DNA of 64,000 bases from a virus. The notes beneath the pieces are model-generated. The model saw nothing but the letters and a program-made list of their open reading frames with translations. It searched no databases and had not been told where the DNA came from. Position 1 is the first letter of the stretch. The number at the start of each line of letters is the position of its first letter. Both the position numbers and the translations under genes were made by a program. Below are positions 2 through 50,690 of this stretch, piece by piece. The stretch covers positions 32,001 through 96,000 of IMG/VR virus record IMGVR_UViG_3300020190_000007. One strand, given 5' to 3'.

Positions 2-3000
2 TGTAACAGAACTTGTAGGGGTTACGGATGGTGTTCTACTTGGCGTAACACTCGGTGTAACAGAACTTGTAGGGGTTACTGAAGGAGTAACACTCGGAGT
101 TACTGATGGTGTAACAGAACTTGTAGGTGTAACAGATGGTGTTCTACTTGGCGTAACACTCGGTGTAACAGAAGGTGTAACAGAACTTGTAGGTGTAACA
201 GATGGTGTAACACTTGGTGTTCTACTTGGCGTAACACTCGGTGTAACAGAACTTGTAGGAGTTACAGATGGTGTTCTACTTGGCGTAACACTCGGTGTAA
301 CAGAACTTGTAGGGGTTACGGATGGTGTAACAGATGGTGTAACTGATGGAGTAACTGAACTAGTTGGGGTGACGGATGGTGTTCTACTTGGTGTCACCGA
401 TGGAGTAACGCTTGATGTGGGTGTTAATGATGGAGTAACAGATGGTGTTCTTGACGGTGTGATGGAAGGTGTAACAGAACTAGTTGGTGTGATAGATGGT
501 GTAACACTTGGTGTAACCGAAGGTGTAACACTTGGTGTAACAGAACTTGTAGGTGTAACTGAAGGTGTTACGGATGGGGTAACACTTGGTGTAACAGAAC
601 TAGTTGGTGTGATAGATGGTGTAACACTTGGTGTTCTTGACGGTGTAACAGAACTTGTAGGTGTTACTGAAGGTGTTACTGAAGGTGTAACACTTGGTGT
701 GACAGAACTAGTAGGAGTTACTGATGGTGTAACTGAAGGGGTAACACTTGGTGTTCTACTTGGTGTAACAGAACTTGTAGGTGTAACTGAAGGTGTTACA
801 GATGGTGTAACACTTGGAGTTACTGAACTAGTAGGTGTAACACTTGGTGTTCTACTTGGTGTAACAGATGGTGTAACAGAACTTGTAGGTGTTACTGAAG
901 GTGTTACTGAAGGTGTAACACTTGGTGTGACAGACGGAGTTACCGATGGTGTAACTGAAGGTGTTATGCTCGGAGTTACGGAAGGTGTTACAGAACTTGT
1001 AGGTGTTACAGATGGTGTTCTACTTGGGGTAACGGATGGTGTAACAGATGGTGTAACAGATGGTGTGACACTTGGTGTTACCGATGGTGTTACCGATGGT
1101 GTAACACTAGATGTTGGTGTAACACTTGGTGTTCTTGATGGTGTGATTGACGGTGTTACCGAACTAGTAGCAGTAACTGAAGGTGTAACACTTGGAGTCA
1201 CGGATGGGGTTACTGAACTAGTTGGTGTAACGGAAGGTGTTCTTGACGGTGTGATAGATGGGGTTACACTCGATGTTGGTGTGATAGATGGAGTAACAGA
1301 TGGAGTAACAGATGGAGTTACTGAACTACTTGGTGTTACTGATGGTGTAACACTTGGTGTAACCGATGGAGTTACTGAACTAGTGGGGGTTACTGAAGGA
1401 GTTCTTGAAGGTGTAATAGAAGGTGTAACGCTTGATGTTGGTGTAACTGATGGGGTAACTGATGGGGTAACACTCGGAGTAATAGAACTAGTTGGTGTAA
1501 CGGATGGGGTAACTGATGGAGTTACTGATGGAGTTACTGAACTACTCGGTGTTACCGACGGAGTAACTGAAGGAGTAACACTTGGTGTTCTTGATGGTGT
1601 TACCGACGGAGTGATTGATGGGGTTACCGACGGAGTGATTGATGGGGTTACAGAAGATGTTGGTGTAACTGATGGTGTGACACTTGGCGTAACTGATGGT
1701 GTGACAGAACTTGTAGGAGTTACTGAAGGAGTTCTTGAAGGTGTAATAGAGGGTGTAACGCTTGATGTTATTGATGGTGTTACTGATGATGTGACACTCG
1801 GAGTAACCGAAGGTGTAACTGAACTGGTTGGTGTCACCGATGGTGTAATAGATGGGGTAACTGATGGAGTTACAGAAGGTGTAACTGATGGTGTAACACT
1901 CGGAGTTTTACTTGGTGTGATAGATGGTGTAACACTAGATGTTGGTGTAACTGATGGTGTAACAGATGGTGTAACACTTGGAGTTACAGAAGATGTTGGT
2001 GTCACCGATGGTGTAACACTTGGTGTAACTGAACTTGTTGGGGTAACAGATGGTGTCACTGATGGAGTGACTGACGGGGTTACCGAAGCGGTTACTGATG
2101 GTGTAACAGAAGGTGTTCTACTTGGTGTAATAGATGGTGTGACAGAACTAGTGGGTGTGATTGATGGTGTTATAGAGGGTGTTACCGAACTTGTTGGAGT
2201 TACAGATGGTGTTACGGATGGTGTTATTGATGGTGTTACAGAAGATGTCGGTGTAATTGATGGTGTGACACTCGGAGTTACAGATGGTGTTATAGATGGA
2301 GTAACGCTTGGTGTAACTGAAGGTGTAACAGATGGAGTTACAGAACTAGTAGGTGTAATTGATGGTGTAACCGAAGGTGTAACCGAAGGTGTTACGGAAC
2401 TTGTAGGTGTGACACTCGGAGTTACAGATGGTGTAACTGATGGTGTGACGCTCGGTGTAACAGATGGTGTTCTACTTGGTGTTATAGATGGGGTAACTGA
2501 AGATGTCGGCGTAACTGATGGTGTGACACTTGGAGTCACGGATGGAGTAACGGAACTTGTTGGAGTAACGGATGGTGTAACTGATGGTGTAACAGAACTA
2601 GTAGGGGTGATAGATGGTGTTACTGATGGAGTTACAGATGGGGTAACAGAACTGGTAGGTGTTACCGATGGTGTAACACTTGGCGTAACTGATGGTGTTT
2701 TACTTGGTGTAACAGATGGAGTTACAGATGGTGTGATACTCGGAGTGATTGACGGTGTTACCGAACTTGTTGGAGTAACAGATGGTGTTCTACTTGGTGT
2801 TACAGATGGTGTAACAGATGGTGTTACAGATGGGGTAACGGATGGGGTAACTGAAGGCGTTACGCTCGGGGTTACTGAACTTGTAGCGGTAACCGATGGT
2901 GTTATACTTGGAGTTACGGATGGGGTTACAGAACTTGTAGGTGTCACCGACGGAGTAACTGACGGTGTCACGCTTGGTGTAACTGATGGTGTAACACTTG

Positions 3001-6000
3001 GAGTCACTGATGGTGTTACAGATGGTGTAACACTTGGAGTTACTGAACTAGTAGGTGTAACCGATGGTGTTATACTTGGAGTTACGGATGGAGTTACAGA
3101 ACTTGTTGGAGTTACAGACGGAGTAACTGACGGTGTTACAGATGGTGTGATAGATGGTGTAACACTTGCGGTAACAGAAGGTGTTCTACTTGGTGTTATA
3201 GATGGTGTAACAGAACTAGTAGGTGTAACCGACGGAGTTACAGATGGTGTAACAGATGGTGTTACTGAACTAGTAGGTGTTATTGATGGTGTTATAGACG
3301 GTGTTACCGATGGAGTTACACTTGAAGTTGGAGTTACTGATGGCGTTACTGATGGTGTTACAGATGGTGTGACTGATGATGTTGGAGTGACTGAGGGTGT
3401 AACAGATGGTGTAACACTAGATGTAACTGATGGTGTGACACTCGGAGTAACTGAAGGGGTAACAGATGGAGTAATAGATGGAGTTACAGACGATGTTGGA
3501 GTAACACTCGGAGTTACAGACGGTGTTACCGATGGAGTAACTGAACTAGTGGGCGTTACCGATGGTGTGACACTAGGTGTAATCGATGAAGTAACTGATG
3601 GGGTTACAGAAGGGGTTACAGAAGGGGTTACAGAAGGGGTTACAGAAGGGGTTACGCTCGGTGTAACTGAAGATGTTGGCGTAACCGATGGTGTGGTACT
3701 TGGGGTAACTGATGGTGTAACTGACGATGTAACACTAGGTGTAACTGATGGTGTGACACTCGGAGTAACTGAAGGGGTAACACTTGGGGTTACTGAACTT
3801 GTTGGAGTCACCGATGGTGTTATACTTGGAGTTACGGATGGGGTTACGGATGATGTCGGTGTTACTGATGGGGTGATAGAAGGTGTGACAGATGGGGTTA
3901 CGGAACTAGTTGGTGTGACACTCGGAGTTACACTTGGGGTCACCGAGCTGGTTACTGACGGTGTTACAGAAGAAGTTACAGATGGTGTAACTGATGGTGT
4001 TATTGATGGTGTTACAGAACTAGTAGGTGTAACTGATGGGGTGATAGATGGGGTAACACTTGGCGTAACAGAACTAGTTGGTGTAATTGAAGGAGTTACT
4101 GAAGGAGTTACTGAAGGAGTTACTGATGGAGTTACTGAACTAGTAGGAGTGACAGAGGGTGTTACTGATGGAGTTACAGATGGGGTAACACTTGGTGTAA
4201 CAGAACTGGTGGGAGTGACAGAGGGCGTTACAGAGGGTGTTACTGATGGAGTTACTGATGGGGTAACACTTGGTGTAACAGAACTAGTAGGTGTAACGGA
4301 AGGTGTAACAGATGGTGTTACACTTGGTGTAACCGATGGTGTAACCGATGAAGTGGGAGTTACTGATGGTGTAACACTTGGTGTAACAGAACTAGTAGGT
4401 GTAACGGAAGGTGTAACACTAGCAGTTACTGAAGGTGTAACAGAACTAGTTGGGGTCACTGACGGAGTAACACTTGGAGTCACCGAAGGTGTAACAGAAC
4501 TAGTAGGAGTTACAGAGGGTGTTACTGATGGAGTTACGGATGGAGTTACAGATGAAGTAGGAGTTATTGATGGTGTAATAGATGGGGTAACACTTGGTGT
4601 AACAGAACTAGTGGGTGTAACGGAAGGTGTAACAGATGGTGTTACACTTGGTGTAATGGAACTAGTAGGAGTTACAGAGGGTGTTTCAGATGGTGTAACA
4701 GAAGGTGTAACAGATGGTGTAACACTTGATGTTGGTGTTACTGATGGTGTAACGCTTGGTGTAACGGACGGTGTAACTGATGATGTTGGTGTTACACTTG
4801 GTGTAACGGAAGGTGTAACGCTTGGTGTAATAGAACTCGTAGGAGTTACAGATGGGGTTATTGATGGTGTAACAGATGGGGTTACAGACGATGTGGGTGT
4901 GATAGAAGGGGTAACGCTCGCGGTCACCGATGGTGTAACTGAACTAGTGGGGGTTACTGATGGTGTAACACTCGGAGTTACTGAGGGTGTGACAGATGGG
5001 GTAACACTTGATGTAGGTGTTAGTGATGGTGTAATAGAAGGTGTAACACTTGGTGTAACAGATGGTGTGGTAGATGGGGTGACAGAACTTGTCGGTGTAA
5101 CACTTGGTGTAAGACTTGGGGTTACTGAAGGAGTAATCGATGATGTTGGTGTTACTGATGGAGTTACGGATGGTGTAACAGATGGTGTAACAGAACTTGT
5201 TGGGGTGATACTAGAAGTTACTGATGGTGTTACCGAGCTGGTTACTGACGGTGTTACAGATGGTGTCACGCTCGGTGTTACGGAAGGTGTCACAGAACTA
5301 GTTGGTGTAACACTTGGTGTAACAGAAGGTGTTACTGATGGCGTAACAGAGGATGTAGGGGTTACAGATGGTGTAACACTCGGAGTTACTGAAGGAGTAA
5401 TCGATGATGTTGGTGTAACACTCGGTGTAACACTTGGTGTTTCAGATGGTGTAACACTCGGTGTAACTGAACTTGTAGGTGTTACTGATGGTGTAACAGA
5501 TGGTGTAATAGACGGTGTTACCGAACTAGTGGGGGTTACTGATGGAGTTACGGATGGCGTAACAGATGGTGTAACTGATGATGTTGGTGTTATACTTGGT
5601 GTGACCGACGGTGTAACTGATGGAGTTACAGAACTAGTAGGTGTTATTGATGGTGTTATAGACGGTGTTATTGAACTAGTAGGTGTTACTGATGGTGTAA
5701 CAGACGGTGTAACAGACGGTGTTACGGAACTAGTAGGTGTAACAGATGGTGTAACGCTTGGTGTGACCGATGGTGTGACAGAACTAGTGGGAGTTACAGA
5801 AGGTGTAACTGACGGAGTGACCGATGGTGTAACAGAACTAGTAGGGGTCACCGATGGTGTTTCAGATGGTGTGACTGAACTAGTTGGTGTCACACTAGGA
5901 GTTACTGAAGGTGTTATACTTGGTGTCACAGAAGACGTTGGTGTAACGGAAGGTGTGATGCTTGGTGTAACAGACGGTGTTACTGAACTAGTAGGTGTAA

Positions 6001-7303
6001 CAGATGGTGTAACACTTGGTGTAACACTCGGAGTTACTGAAGGAGTAATCGATGATGTTGGTGTAACACTCGGTGTAACACTTGGTGTTTCAGATGGTGT
6101 AACACTCGGTGTAACTGAACTTGTAGGTGTTACTGATGGTGTAACAGATGGTGTGACTGAACTGGTTGGAGTTACTGATGGTGTAACAGACGGTGTAACA
6201 GACGGTGTAACAGAACTAGTTGGAGTCACAGAAGGTGTTACGCTAGGTGTTTCAGATGGGGTTACAGAACTAGTTGGTGTAACGGAAGGTGTAACACTTG
6301 GTGTAATAGATGGTGTAATAGAACTAGTGGGAGTCACAGAAGGTGTTACGCTAGGTGTTTCAGATGGTGTAACGGAACTAGTGGGAGTTACTGATGGTGT
6401 AACAGAAGGTGTTACCGATGGTGTTACGGAACTAGTGGGAGTTACAGATGGTGTTTCAGATGGTGTAACAGAAGGTGTAACGCTCGGAGTTATTGACGAT
6501 GTTGGAGTAATTGAGGGTGTAACACTTGGAGTTATTGAAGGAGTTACCGACGATGTTGGTGTTACAGATGGGGTAACACTTGGTGTTTCAGATGGTGTAA
6601 CACTTGGTGTAACTGAACTAGTCGGGGTTACAGAAGGTGTTTCAGATGGGGTAATAGATGGTGTAGCACTTGGTGTAACAGAACTAGTTGGTGTAACAGA
6701 TGGTGTTACACTCGGTGTAACCGAAGGTGTAACAGAAGATGTAGGAGTTACAGAAGGTGTAACACTTGGTGTAACCGATGGTGTAACTGAACTAGTAGGT
6801 GTTACTGATGGTGTTTCAGATGGTGTAACACTTGGTGTAACTGAACTAGTTGGAGTTACAGAAGGTGTTTCAGACGGGGTAATAGACGGTGTAACACTTG
6901 GTGTAACAGAACTAGTAGGTGTTACTGATGGTGTAACAGAGGGTGTTACACTTGGTGTAATGGAACTAGTAGGTGTTACAGATGGTGTAACAGAGGGTGT
7001 TACTGATGGTGTAACACTTGGTGTAACCGATGATGTTGGTGTTACTGATGGAGTTACTGATGGTGTAACACTTGGTGTTATTGAACTAGTAGGAGTTACA
7101 GAAGGTGTAAGTGATGGGGTGATGGAAGACGTGGGGGTTACTGATGGTGTTTTAGATGGTGTGATACTCGGAGTTACGGATGGTGTAACACTTGGTGTAA
7201 CTGAACTAGTGGGTGTAACACTTGGTGTTCTACTTGGTGTAACAGAAGGTGTTACTGATGGTGTTTGTGTTAATGTTGGTGTAGGTGTGGGTGAAGGAGT
7301 GGG
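2..7303 (-). repeat. Degenerate coding tandem repeat of 12-nt (TPSV) and 18-nt (TPTSSV) units, about 2430 codons
   Basis: Plus strand is (ggtgtaacagat)-like and (ggtgtaacagaacttgta)-like units with heavy third-position variation. Confidence 0.97.
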
Positions 7304-7498
7304 ACAAGGAATTTCAGCCACACAGGTTTTATCCAGTGATGGAAAATAAATTGAGTAAGTACCTAAATAATAGTTTGTTTCGTAATAATATGGCATTAGG
7401 ACGGAACCTAAATTTATGGTACCGCCAGTACAAGGATAAAATGTAATGTCACCGATTTCCTCATTAAAATTACCCGCGTTTATTTTTATTAATGCCAT
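2..7498 (-). CDS. Giant Ser/Thr/Pro/Val-rich mucin-like repeat protein, >=2499 aa, 3' end beyond the left edge; probable virion fibre/decoration protein
   Basis: ATG at 7498 reads [94 protein letters not shown]...; no stop down to position 2; same strand as the upstream structural genes; Ser alternates TCN/AGY on this strand. Missed by the ORF track because there is no stop in the window. Confidence 0.92.
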
Positions 7499-46997: not shown

Positions 46998-47486
46998 TTA
47001 GTAAACTAAAATACATCTATCCATTCTTAACGAACATGTGATAGATGCAATATCATCTCTTGAATAATCAAGTTCGTTAAAGTTTAAGTCGGTTATGAAA
47101 GAACCTTGAAGTATCCATTTTTCAACCACAACCCCCGTTGGGTCTAACATCTCTAATTCAATATCCTTTTTATAACCAGCTGCGTAACCCATACGACCTG
47201 TTACTGATTCGGCGTGTAGACGGAACCATTCCATCAACGCTTGTGACGCTGAAGGACCAATTGGGTCTTTGAAGGTTACTCTTATTTCACTCCATTCAAA
47301 TCTACCAGCAACATATGTTGAGGTGTTTATAAAAGGAATTGCAACTGAATTTATTTTTGCGCTTGGTCTTGCACTTGATGTTACATACCATTCATTTATT
47401 CCTAATGATGAAGGAAATCTAAGTATGAATCGGTTAACTCTTTTCGGTTCGTAAGGAACCGGCATTTTCATTAATAAATCTGCCAT
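46998..47486 (-). CDS. Tail tube protein (T4 gp19-like)
   Basis: EPKRVNRF, YVAGRFEWSEIRVTFKD, GYAAGYKKDIELEMLDPTGVVVEKWILQG; follows the sheath. Confidence 0.92.
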   Translation of the reverse strand: MADLLMKMPVPYEPKRVNRFILRFPSSLGINEWYVTSSARPSAKINSVAIPFINTSTYVAGRFEWSEIRVTFKDPIGPSASQALMEWFRLHAESVTGRMGYAAGYKKDIELEMLDPTGVVVEKWILQGSFITDLNFNELDYSRDDIASITCSLRMDRCILVY

Positions 47487-47528
47487 GTCAATATTTGTTT
47501 TTTATTTTTTTTATTTTTAATCTTTCTT

Positions 47529-47535
47529 ATAAATA
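47529..47535 (-). promoter_or_regulatory. Putative late promoter motif TATTTAT for the tail tube
   Basis: 42 nt upstream of the tube ATG, downstream of the sheath terminator. Confidence 0.5.
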
Positions 47536-47608: not shown

Positions 47609-47727
47609 ACTAGTACTAGATGCTAGTAAATTAAGAACTAGATTAAAGAAACTAGAATAACTAGAAAGAAATAAACTAGATAAAAATAAACTAGAACTAG
47701 AACTAGAATACTGGTGCATATACTGGG
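47609..47727. repeat. Cluster of 10 CTAG boxes (7 as AACTAGA) plus 2 degenerate ACTGG; iteron/origin-like
   Basis: CTAG at 47610, 47616, 47623, 47638, 47652, 47661, 47676, 47691, 47697 and 47703 in non-coding A-rich DNA. Confidence 0.85.
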
Positions 47728-47786
47728 TAATTTATAATTTTATTTTTTTTATATTTAGTAGTTCCGTAGGTCACACTATATTATAA

Positions 47787-47802
47787 TGTTCCACGTGGAA
47801 CA
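47787..47802. promoter_or_regulatory. parS: parS-type centromere palindrome TGTTCCACGTGGAACA
   Basis: Exact 16-bp palindrome (18 bp with the flanking A/T) matching the chromosomal ParB/Spo0J binding consensus TGTTNCACGTGNAACA; intergenic. Confidence 0.8.
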
Positions 47803-47809
47803 TAAAATA

Positions 47810-47834
47810 GGGAGGGTTTCCCCTCCCCTTTTTA
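47810..47834. terminator. Bidirectional intrinsic terminator after the sheath gene
   Basis: GGGAGGG-GAAA-CCCTCCC hairpin (GNRA loop on the minus strand) with T-rich tails on both strands. Confidence 0.85.
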
Positions 47835-50690
47835 TTAGATATCATCAAATGATGCTCCTGTTGGTGTAATTATGAACTCAACATCTATGAATTCTAGAGC
47901 TCTTGTTGGTTTGATATAAATCTTACCTCTCAAAGTATTAGAGTCAATGTCTTCTGGGTCGTTGGAAACCGTAACACGGAATTCATATAAACCCCTTTCC
48001 CTTTTAATTGCATCTAATATTGGGTTAACCAATCTCAAGAATTCATTACGAACTTGTTCGTCATTTTGTTCGAATAACAATCTTACCGCTACTGCCGAAA
48101 TTAATTTTCTAGCCCTTAACAATAATCTTCTTACGTTAATTCTATCCAACGCCGATTCACGAATTTGAAGGGTTTTGTTACCCCATATAATTGTGCCGGT
48201 ATCTGCGTATGTTGCTATTGGGTTAATTCTAGCTTTGTATAGGTCATCTCTTTCATCTAAAGTTAATTTCTTAACCGCTTTAATTGAATTTACTAATCCT
48301 CTTGAATAACCCGCTACCGCAAACCAAGGGAAAGATACGTTATCGGTTAACGCAATATTTCTTAAAACTTCACCAGTTGGTGGTAGATATATTTGTACGG
48401 CGTTGTCTACGTCTCTAACTTGAATCCAAGGCCAATAAACAGCTGAATAATTACTATCAATCGACACACCGTCCAAAGCGTCTATTACTTCATCCGCAGT
48501 ACTGTAGTTTGGTGGTGAAATTACGTAAAGAGAATCCGCTCTATCGTCTTCAATCATATCAATTGCATATGACGTTAAAGAACTATTGTCATAGAAGTTA
48601 ATACCCGGTGTTGCAAAAATGTTTATATCAACTGATTCAGGATTTGAGAAGGTGTCAATACCTTGGGCGTAAGCGTAGTAATCAGAGTTTCCCGATACCG
48701 TGCTAAACACGCCTCCATTATTGGTATTACCACTTGTGTAAGTGTTTTTACCAAAGATGAATCCATCACCGTAGGTTCTCACATTTCTATAGATATCCCA
48801 ACCATCAAATCCTCCAGCAGCGGTAAAAGTGAACTTACGATAATTGATGTTTGTCAATACGTTACTAACTCCACCTGTTTGACCCTCTAAATCATACGAT
48901 GTAGTTAAGAAAGTTGTTCCTGTGATTGTAGACGCGTTTGTTGATAAGTGGAAACCCTTAGTCGTACCAGCCGCTGAAGTTCCTTTGAATTTAAATAAGT
49001 CCCTATCGTATGTTACTTTATTGGTTGGACTTGATAAACCAAAGTATGTTTTTCTCACTTTATCACCTGAAGATAAAACCGGTGTTCCATCTGCGAGATA
49101 AGATTCGGTATCACCAGCATTAAAGAATGTAGTTTTGTAAATCACAGAACCCAAAGTGTCTGAACCGAAAGTACTGTTATTCGGGAATCCTTTAAATCCG
49201 GCGGGATATGCGTCAACGGGGTGATTATCAGACATTAACAGCATAATGTATTTTGAACGTATTTCATATTCACCATCGGATGTACCAACCTTTTTAGCCA
49301 CATAATTAGGTAAATCTGGATTCATACTACATCTACTAAATTTTTCAAGTACGACAATATTATTGTCTGTATCGTTAAAATCTCTAACAATTAAGTCAAA
49401 GTCACCCGTGTCTATATTGATATTAATAATAGAAATTTTTACCTCAAAGTTCGCTGCGTCCCCGTCTGATATTGTAATTACATCAAATAAATCATTGACT
49501 TCACCACCTCTTACTTCAGAAACAACAGTTGGTGATATTGGAGTATCATAAGACGTTTTAAAGTCATTACCAACAGTTTCATAAGATTCTGTTAAGCTTA
49601 AACCTCTAATATATCCTTCTTCATAAGCTCTTAACAAATAATTTGGATAAGCTTCAAATACATAAATAGGAACGTCACCTTTTAATTTGTCATAAACATC
49701 TGTACCAAATACTTTTGTTACATATTTTGATGACGACGCATCCATACTACAAGTAAATGATTTTGCTCCGCTCGTTGAACCTGTAATATTCACTGTAAAT
49801 TCAGCTAAAGGATTTGTAGTAATTCCTGAACCTGTCACAATGAAATTAGCATTCCCCGTGGACTCTAAGTTTAAAGTTTGTTGGCTGTAAGAGCCTCTTG
49901 GTCTGAACGCTAAAACAACCTGATTATTATATGCCGTATTGAGTGTTGCGTTGTAGGTGAACTTAGTCACATCAAATCTACTTGCACCACTGTTGTATAC
50001 AAATAAGTAAGAATACACTTCAGAACCCGCGGAATTTACTAAAACATTATACCATTCCTTATTGTTATTATTATTTGCGTTATTTAAACCTGTTAGAGGA
50101 GAAAGTTCTTCAAGTGATGCGGTTTGACCAGAGGTTTGTGAAGTTGGTACTTCACCCATAACAAACCACTCTCCATGATTAGATGATGTGTTACCACTAA
50201 AGTTTGCCACAATATAATCTGTAATATAATTTCCATCTACAGATATTTTATCTGATAGTTCACTATAAATCGTACTTGCCGTGATTGTTGTGGTCTGTGC
50301 TGACATTGTTAAACCCGTGGTTGTACCACTAAGCGATTCCAATATAACACCAGCAATTGTCTTAACCCCGTAAGTTTTAACAGGTAAGTAACCCGTTAAA
50401 CCCAATATTTTTGTTACAAATAATTGGTTTGATTCTTCTAAATAAGATTTTGCAAAATAAGGTAATTCATATTTTGGGTTATTGTTGTTGTCTTTTAAGG
50501 GACTTGTTCCTCCAAAATATGACTTGAATTCGTCAAAATTAGTTATTAATAAAGGTTCAAAAGCGGGACCCTTTAAGGTTTCACCCACCAAACCTAATGT
50601 GCTGACACCAACACTTTGTGCCACGAATGTTAAGTCTTTTTCGGATGTGTATACACCCGGAGATACAAAAACTCTATTTGAATTTGCCAT
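47835..50690 (-). CDS. Tail sheath protein (T4 gp18-like)
   Basis: VSPGVYTSEKD N-terminus; YSAVYWPW, PWFAVAGYSRG, RDDLYKARINPI, WGNKTLQ...SALDRINVRRL, FEQND and PTRALEFI C-terminal motifs. Confidence 0.96.
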   Translation of the reverse strand: MANSNRVFVSPGVYTSEKDLTFVAQSVGVSTLGLVGETLKGPAFEPLLITNFDEFKSYFGGTSPLKDNNNNPKYELPYFAKSYLEESNQLFVTKILGLTGYLPVKTYGVKTIAGVILESLSGTTTGLTMSAQTTTITASTIYSELSDKISVDGNYITDYIVANFSGNTSSNHGEWFVMGEVPTSQTSGQTASLEELSPLTGLNNANNNNNKEWYNVLVNSAGSEVYSYLFVYNSGASRFDVTKFTYNATLNTAYNNQVVLAFRPRGSYSQQTLNLESTGNANFIVTGSGITTNPLAEFTVNITGSTSGAKSFTCSMDASSSKYVTKVFGTDVYDKLKGDVPIYVFEAYPNYLLRAYEEGYIRGLSLTESYETVGNDFKTSYDTPISPTVVSEVRGGEVNDLFDVITISDGDAANFEVKISIININIDTGDFDLIVRDFNDTDNNIVVLEKFSRCSMNPDLPNYVAKKVGTSDGEYEIRSKYIMLLMSDNHPVDAYPAGFKGFPNNSTFGSDTLGSVIYKTTFFNAGDTESYLADGTPVLSSGDKVRKTYFGLSSPTNKVTYDRDLFKFKGTSAAGTTKGFHLSTNASTITGTTFLTTSYDLEGQTGGVSNVLTNINYRKFTFTAAGGFDGWDIYRNVRTYGDGFIFGKNTYTSGNTNNGGVFSTVSGNSDYYAYAQGIDTFSNPESVDINIFATPGINFYDNSSLTSYAIDMIEDDRADSLYVISPPNYSTADEVIDALDGVSIDSNYSAVYWPWIQVRDVDNAVQIYLPPTGEVLRNIALTDNVSFPWFAVAGYSRGLVNSIKAVKKLTLDERDDLYKARINPIATYADTGTIIWGNKTLQIRESALDRINVRRLLLRARKLISAVAVRLLFEQNDEQVRNEFLRLVNPILDAIKRERGLYEFRVTVSNDPEDIDSNTLRGKIYIKPTRALEFIDVEFIITPTGASFDDI

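Follow-up and report, generated by a model that had tools for sequence, protein, structure and literature searches.

A chromosomal-type parS palindrome between the tail sheath and tail tube genes of a jumbo T4-like lake-water phage: a candidate docking site for host ParB

Introduction

What is a sequence that reads as a bacterial chromosomal centromere (parS) doing in the spacer between two tail genes of a large phage, and which protein would read it there? The question was raised by a preliminary description of the 64,000-nt stretch of DNA considered here (the window), which corresponds to bases 32001-96000 of a 170,860-bp IMG/VR virus record (completeness 55% according to CheckV; G+C 32.7%). 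An 18-bp palindrome in the sheath−tube spacer was there proposed to fit the parS consensus, and the phage was proposed to use it to recruit the ParB protein of its host or to titrate it away from the host chromosome. Precedents are found in the Bacillus phages phi29 and Nf, which carry parS sites bound by the host Spo0J protein. Phi29 has five of them, and its genome is thereby segregated into the prespore (PMC2731898). The literature on host ParB acting on phage parS sites, or on jumbo phages carrying parS, yielded nothing direct beyond phi29 and Nf.

The palindrome and the sheath−tube spacer

The location of the palindrome and the identity of both neighbouring genes, as initially described, were confirmed, the latter with PHROGs and Pfam. 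The features of the region are, by increasing coordinate:

46998-47486, minus strand: tail tube gene, 162 aa (phrog_4542, E 2.5e-24; T4 gp19-like; PHROGs and Pfam)
47528-47535, minus strand: TATTTATA, promoter-like motif, 49 nt upstream of the tube ATG
47609-47710, no strand: CTAG-rich repeat array, 10 CTAG, with units like AACTAGA
47708-47728, minus strand: CCCAGTAT/CCAGTAT element, conserved and unique in the genome
47786-47803, no strand: palindrome ATGTTCCACGTGGAACAT, the inner 16 bp of which (47787-47802) correspond to a chromosomal-type parS
47809-47828, minus strand: intrinsic terminator of the sheath gene, a GC-rich hairpin with an A-run before and a T-run after
47835-50690, minus strand: tail sheath gene, 951 aa (phrog_23, E 4e-59; Pfam Phage_sheath_1 and Phage_sheath_1C)

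The palindrome, perfect over its 18 bp, lies within the 348-bp spacer that leads from the sheath gene to the tube gene, right behind the sheath terminator (it begins 5 nt past the terminator stem) and 316 nt upstream of the tube start codon. On the gene strand the order of the elements is sheath stop, terminator, palindrome, A/T tract, CCCAGTAT/CCAGTAT, CTAG array, TATTTATA and tube start. The earlier statement that the window holds a single copy was borne out, the sole other match being intragenic with 3 mismatches, and it could be extended to the whole 170,860-bp record, in which no second copy of the 16-mer was found. At the base composition of the record approximately 5e-6 copies of the exact 16-mer are expected per 64 kb, in agreement with the initial estimate that a chance occurrence is very unlikely, and the position of the site is kept in relatives. 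Palindromes as such are not rare in the record, as indicated by the presence of 4 perfect ones of at least 18 bp against approximately 1.75 expected from base composition.

The elements that surround the palindrome differ in the way they are conserved. The terminator, which looks bidirectional because an A-run precedes and a T-run follows its hairpin, keeps its fold in relatives while being present in 52 different sequences among the 63 loci compared. The distance from the palindrome start to CCCAGTAT is 46-49 nt in most relatives and 75 nt in the window. The tetranucleotide CTAG is depleted three-fold genome-wide (156 observed, approx. 518 expected), and the spacer is its densest cluster, with 10 copies per 150 bp, the three other clusters, in the repeat gene, having only 4. 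In relatives L073 and L079 the CTAG unit is expanded to a perfect tandem array of 12.9 x 16 bp (CTAGGATCTCTAGTAT; L073:1037-1242). The CTAG array looks like an array of protein-binding sites. Among upstream motifs TATTTATA dominates, being present in front of 29 of 169 genes (2.6 expected; often after A/G-A). In all relatives it is situated between -40 and -56 with respect to the tube ATG, and it is probably the main promoter element of the phage. It is the reverse complement of TATAAATA, the T4 late-promoter word, yet it is located on the gene strand.

The spacer is also an insertion hot spot in relatives, where extra genes of 0.9-2.2 kb are found (L032:1166-2689, L038:508-2169, L049:1040-1738, L050:2029-2712, L073:1282-2895, L078:2116-2739); these encode YkuD-type L,D-transpeptidases, a GDSL-like lipase/acylhydrolase, DUF7487 proteins and a zinc-ribbon/REase_MTES_1575 endonuclease-like protein. 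Elsewhere in the window, at 2-7498, both strands are open for approximately 2,450-2,500 codons in a giant low-complexity repeat gene, with a G+C content of 44-46% against 30-35% for the remaining window and a GC skew of approximately +0.47. Outside the window, at G000:C1:131633-132878, there are four tRNA genes (Leu-TAA, Arg-TCT, Met-CAT and Gly-GCC).

Match to chromosomal parS sites and likely host

The inner 16 bp of the palindrome fit the consensus TGTTNCACGTGNAACA at 16 of 16 positions, as the preliminary description had it, and their letters are identical to those of chromosomal parS sites. The exact 18-mer is present in at least 120 bacterial genome contigs from many phyla, and it is common to find multiple copies separated by no more than a few kb. 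In five Bacteroidota genomes all TGTTNCACGTGNAACA matches except one fall in tight clusters of 2-5 sites, and nearly all of these clustered sites have the C..G spelling of the phage site. Clusters of the exact 16-mer were found in Chitinophaga, Flavobacteriaceae, Algibacter and Mucilaginibacter.

The comparison with the parS variants of Bacteroidota that had been suggested at the outset was carried out on 121 sampled genomes of the phylum of the Flavobacteriaceae reference (Bacteroidota): the 14-bp core GTTNCACGTGNAAC is present in 115 of them, with a reversed control close to zero, typically as a pair with a spacing of approximately 2 kb or as clusters with up to 9 members; the exact 16-mer is present in 9 of the 121. 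In one Flavobacteriaceae genome mnmG/gidA, a classic origin-region gene, is flanked by the two parS sites of that genome, and canonical ParB (TIGR00180) scored over the cut-off in all three Bacteroidota genomes tested.

As for the host of the phage, a Shine-Dalgarno-like 4-mer precedes just 6 of 132 long open reading frames, and the leaders are A-rich. Scarce Shine-Dalgarno use combined with A-rich leaders is the pattern of Bacteroidota, and since the phage almost never uses Shine-Dalgarno sites, its hosts probably belong to this phylum. A search for runs containing the phage DNA gave 20 lake-water metagenome DNA runs and no RNA run. In the window's clade the palindrome exactly reproduces the chromosomal parS of freshwater Bacteroidota, the likely hosts.

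Conservation across the phage family

Relatives of the tube protein were found in more than 590 IMG/VR stretches with 82-99% identity, which indicates a widespread family of phages of approximately 300 kb. The identical site is found in the same place in the five closest contigs, and a single perfect site per genome in each of two large relatives, one complete (310,542 bp, with terminal repeats) and the other near-identical and 92% complete. Among 98 unique loci, 65 have the motif (with up to 3 mismatches) at the homologous place just past the sheath terminator, while in the other 33 the approximately 380 nt that precede the tube gene contain none. For a few of these 33 this is due to an inserted gene that displaces the site; in the remaining ones the terminator-plus-palindrome module, or the palindrome alone, is missing rather than decayed. 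No relocated site was detected in the fragments of the motif-less relatives, which are 24-59% complete: only 2-mismatch matches were obtained, 8 of them against 4 for the reversed control. The absence of the site in about a third of the loci, with none relocated in the available fragments, implies that its function is dispensable. The conservation of position between sheath and tube that had been put forward as a check of the initial proposal holds across the family. Of the observation named at the outset as refuting the proposal, an absent or degenerate site in close relatives, part was made: although perfect in the closest relatives, the site has degenerated in many of the others and is lacking in about one third.

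Within the motif-bearing loci the mean pairwise identity of the 16-mer is 0.81, a figure inflated by the 3-mismatch search cut-off, compared with 0.35 and 0.42 for the 45 nt on either side. Positions 2, 4, 6 and 13 are invariant, positions 7, 11, 14 and 15 are nearly so, and most changes fall at positions 16, 10 and 9. Such position-specific substitutions are not what neutral decay produces. The plurality base is the parS base at 15 of 16 positions, the exception being position 16, where C is slightly more frequent than A. In the window's own clade the only variants are TGTTTCACGTGGAACA and TGTTCCACGTGAAACG, both of them legal parS spellings, and the changes seen there are limited to position 5 (C to T), position 12 (G to A) and position 16.

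Perfect sites occur in at least four well-separated clades of the tube-gene tree, on which the motif-less label requires 9 changes, at least 6 of them forced by well-supported branches. On the sequence data, then, the motif is ancestral in the phage family and was lost several times independently. The difference in identity between the motif (0.81) and its flanks (0.35-0.42), the agreement with the parS consensus and the presence of perfect sites in four or more clades lead to the conclusion that the palindrome is a selected, sequence-specific site for a protein, with a predicted role as a docking site of the parS class.

Host ParB as the predicted binder

In the window's clade, where the site is perfect, the palindrome is a candidate docking site for host ParB, a reading to which we assign a probability of roughly one half. 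According to the proposed scheme, host ParB dimers would recognize the palindrome after injection of the phage DNA, bind CTP, close to clamps and slide onto the flanking phage DNA, building up a ParB complex that would engage host ParA and possibly the host chromosome-organizing machinery. The phage genome would then be positioned, compacted or passed to the daughter cells during a slow or stalled infection, and the phage would not need partition genes of its own, following the logic of phi29 minus the spore. The location of the site past a strong terminator, and more than 200 nt ahead of the next promoter motif, would keep it free of transcription. In this scheme we infer the host phylum as well as the binding of ParB and the downstream function.

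With respect to partition genes, searches with ParB_N and AAA_31 revealed neither ParA nor ParB in the window or in the whole fragment; in the 92%- and 100%-complete relatives there was no ParA-type match, and ParB_N matches were only under the cut-off. The initial statement that no ParA or ParB gene is visible is thus valid for the window and for the fragment at large, but near-identical as well as more distant relatives do encode a non-canonical ParB-like protein approximately 153 kb away from the site. The fragment and its two most complete relatives share with phi29 the combination of a host-type parS with the lack of an own ParA or canonical ParB.

A finer comparison is that between the positions that vary in the phage family and those that vary in chromosomal sites. 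Position 16 is the most variable one in both, and the family varies at positions 16, 1, 5 and 12 as chromosomal sites do. However, the T of position 10 is replaced in 42% of the motif-bearing relatives and the G of position 9 in 28%, whereas among 120 parS-bearing loci of many phyla half-site position 7/10 is mismatched in none of 54 imperfect sites, the outermost base taking 44 of 66 mismatches. In 20 Bacteroidota parS arrays 55 of 80 mismatches are outermost, and position 7/10 is mismatched in 5 of 79 sites; the rare centre variants of Bacteroidota include CACGGG, CACAAG and CACGAA, as in the phages. The family profile, TGTTCCAC-nn-GGAAC, is also asymmetric, where a symmetric ParB dimer predicts otherwise. 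It follows from these comparisons that the family profile overlaps the tolerance of ParB, but is looser at the centre and asymmetric. Pseudomonas aeruginosa ParB has been found to bind lone GTTCCAC and GTTTCAC heptamers in vivo (PMC10419367), and in several relatives of the phage extra copies of the GTTCCAC/GTTTCAC heptamer are present beside the site.

Of the initial interpretation, the presence of a host-type parS on a phage with neither ParA nor canonical ParB stands, as do its conserved position between sheath and tube and the occurrence of the core, along with canonical ParB, in the likely host phylum. The reading that invokes host ParB is weakened by the absence of the site in about a third of the relatives, by the changes at position 10 and by the existence of a rival phage-encoded candidate binder. 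What a lytic-looking phage would gain by recruiting ParB in hosts that do not sporulate is also a matter of speculation. Bacteroidota, the inferred hosts, do not sporulate, so that the benefit must differ from that obtained by phi29 and would consist of inheritance in a carrier state or during slow growth.

An observation that bears on lifestyle is that the complete 310-kb relative encodes a tyrosine recombinase, L423 (G002:C1:187797-188246; Phage_integrase, E 5e-36; 273-aa frame), which could be an integrase or a dimer resolvase; it was not found in the 92%-complete close relative or in the window's fragment.

A phage ParB-like protein as a possible binder

The site may instead be the operator or centromere of a phage protein, chiefly of the 251-aa ParB-like protein of the family, its likeness to parS being due to shared helix-turn-helix (HTH) ancestry or being partly coincidental. 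We hold this possible, but somewhat unlikely, and host ParB and a phage factor are not mutually exclusive as binders. The gene is located beyond the end of the window's fragment:

L088:958-1713 (= G001 220.9 kb), minus strand: ParB-like gene; also L092:1501-2214

It is present in all three large relatives searched (G001, G002 and G003; 100% and 45% identity), the product matches phrog_12305, ‘ParB-like partition protein’, with E 6e-22, and 190 homologues of the same size were found, so that this protein is core to the phage family. It contains a ParB/Srx N-domain and an HTH-like helical domain, with a DGQHR motif in place of the GERRxRA motif of ParB. In the AF2 model (pLDDT 90.6), residues 7-205 align to KorB with a Z of 10.4 (rmsd 4.0 over 166 residues), to Noc with a Z of 9.6 and to the Caulobacter ParB−parS complex with a Z of 9.7, the alignments spanning both the nucleotide-binding N-domain and the DNA-binding domain.

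KorB and Noc bind 13-16-bp palindromes of their own, and the predicted similarity of the model to these proteins over both domains, together with the occurrence of the gene in every large relative searched, argues for a phage protein as the reader of the site. The same can be said of the family profile, the asymmetry of which and the tolerance at positions 9, 10 and 16 are unlike those of chromosomal parS. On the other hand, the gene is approximately 153 kb from the palindrome and no parS-like sequence is found near it. At the sequence level the protein aligns to host ParB only at Box II (43 columns, 29% probability), and a comparison with the sequences of solved structures gave no match. It is far under the cut-offs of ParB_N, parB_part and DGQHR, and indeed fails every curated ParB model, scoring 16.6 bits against TIGR00180 for a cut-off of 58.45 bits; no LGRGL-type ParA-binding motif was seen at its N-terminus. 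The fragments of the motif-less relatives, 24-59% complete, end short of the expected position of the gene. More generally, many phage proteins with the ParB fold are not site-specific partition proteins (PMC12704722).

The spacer as a possible composite locus

The palindrome could also be one module of a larger cis-acting locus that occupies the spacer, namely a replication origin or a phage centromere, in which the CTAG repeats would serve as iterons and the A/T tract for unwinding, with partition or loading taking place at the parS-like site. The clustering in one spacer of the palindrome, the unique CCCAGTAT element and the densest CTAG cluster is in line with this proposal, as are the three-fold depletion of CTAG elsewhere, the regular 12.9 x 16-bp CTAG array of some relatives and the spacing of 46-49 nt between palindrome and CCCAGTAT that is fixed in most of them. 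The spacing is not universal, however, and the gap past the palindrome falls in three classes of approximately 8, 32 and 59 nt. Moreover, there are clades that have lost the palindrome but retain CCCAGTAT and the CTAG repeats, and the GC skew follows gene orientation, with no turning point and no orientation switch at the site. To our knowledge no initiator gene that would serve such an origin is known. By taking all this into account, we consider it quite improbable that the palindrome is a module of this kind.

A more elaborate version would have the whole spacer mimic a chromosome origin, with the parS loading host ParB and the folding machinery, an iteron-like CTAG array and the CCAGTAT palindrome bound by a phage factor, possibly the ParB-like protein. 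We judge this unlikely. If the composite reading were true, a virulent genome of approximately 300 kb would be compacted, positioned or inherited in a carrier state in non-sporulating freshwater Bacteroidota.

Readings without a ParB-type binder

The position of the palindrome directly behind a terminator suggests that it may act as an RNA or DNA hairpin, by supporting termination, by stabilizing the 3'-end of the mRNA or as part of a small antisense RNA ending at the bidirectional terminator. Stem pairs 2-6 are Watson−Crick in 81-100% of relatives, a compensated T-A is found at pair 5/12 in a few lineages, and in unrelated phages too the 16-mer is found beside terminators. However, it is the primary sequence of the palindrome that is conserved, while the adjoining true hairpin varies freely, and C-A mismatches are as frequent as G-U ones, whichever strand is considered. 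The palindrome has no T-run behind it, the terminator scan returned only the GC-rich hairpin, and in the minimum-free-energy fold the palindrome does not form a hairpin of its own. The sequence, moreover, equals that of a known protein-binding site. With an Rfam search of the spacer giving nothing near any gathering score, a hairpin function is in our opinion very improbable.

Three more specific roles were considered and set aside. That of intrinsic terminator was rejected because there is no T-run and the sequence is conserved beyond pairing, and that of core promoter or operator of the tube gene because a distance of 234-338 nt separates the palindrome from the ATG downstream of it, and TATTTATA is far away as well. 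The right arm, GGAAC, was evaluated as the -35 element of an ECF-type promoter, which was dropped as the downstream spacing falls in three classes.

Finally, that the site is a chance occurrence or a non-functional relic is hardly credible since, in spite of the number of palindromes of at least 18 bp (4 against approximately 1.75 expected) and of its being dispensable in many relatives, its substitutions are position-specific with positions 2, 4, 6 and 13 invariant, its identity is 0.81 against 0.35-0.42 in the flanks, and it is enriched at least 40-fold over a control palindrome in viral contigs.

Relation to known systems and to other phages

Like phi29 and Nf, the phage is of the lytic type, carries a host-type chromosomal parS and lacks partition genes of its own, and by analogy the use of host ParB is proposed. 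The differences are also evident. Phi29 is a 19-kb podovirus with five sites, the genome of which is trapped in the spore; here, a T4-like myovirus of roughly 300 kb has a single site in the sheath−tube spacer, the inferred hosts are Bacteroidota and binding is predicted. With chromosomal ParABS systems the phage site shares the identical 16 bp, a tolerance of C/T at position 5 and of G/A at position 12, and a free outermost base. Chromosomes, however, usually have 2-9 parS sites clustered near origin genes and encode both ParA and ParB, whereas the phage carries just one, orphan, copy and the central position 10 varies far more often among its relatives.

The presence in the family of a protein with a predicted ParB fold, and of a 16-bp palindrome of the same class, is reminiscent of KorB-OB of plasmid RK2 and of Noc-NBS, but KorB and Noc sites are multiple and dispersed while the phage site is single and the phage protein fails every curated ParB model. 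The GTTCCAC/GTTTCAC heptamer of the P. aeruginosa half-parS sites is the best-conserved part of the family motif; the Pseudomonas half-sites, though, are dispersed over the chromosome in the hundreds with no clear local role, as opposed to one conserved intergenic site in the phage (PMC10419367).

Orphan sites of this type are not confined to the family. In IMG/VR the 16-mer was found in at least 120 viral contigs, compared with 3 for the reversed, composition-matched palindrome, and no ParA or ParB was detected by tblastn near the 16-mer in the 80 loci examined among them (L093-L172; for example L096:5343, L150:9792 and L116:4071). The enrichment, which is at least 40-fold, suggests that phages may quite generally carry orphan host-type parS sites, a feature that would then be under-described. 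In unrelated AT-rich phages the 16-mer was observed near portal genes, and often directly beside an intrinsic terminator (L094, L096, L132, L144 and L155).

Concluding remarks

That a virulent phage can carry a host-type parS was already established by phi29 and Nf, and no new principle is introduced by the present case. What is new is that the phages are jumbo T4-like myoviruses from lake water; that their inferred hosts, Bacteroidota, do not sporulate; that the site is single, ancestral and fixed in position; that there is a natural allele series, which comprises perfect, centre-degenerate and deleted sites; and that the site is found together with a unique repeat locus and with a phage ParB-like protein as candidate binder. 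The allele series and the candidate phage binder make the question of which protein reads the site directly testable.

If host ParB does load at the palindrome, the borrowing of host partition known from phi29 would extend past spore-forming Firmicutes to jumbo T4-like phages of freshwater Bacteroidota. The gain for a phage that appears to be of the lytic type may then lie in carrier-state inheritance, in the compaction of its genome or in the titration of ParB away from the host chromosome.
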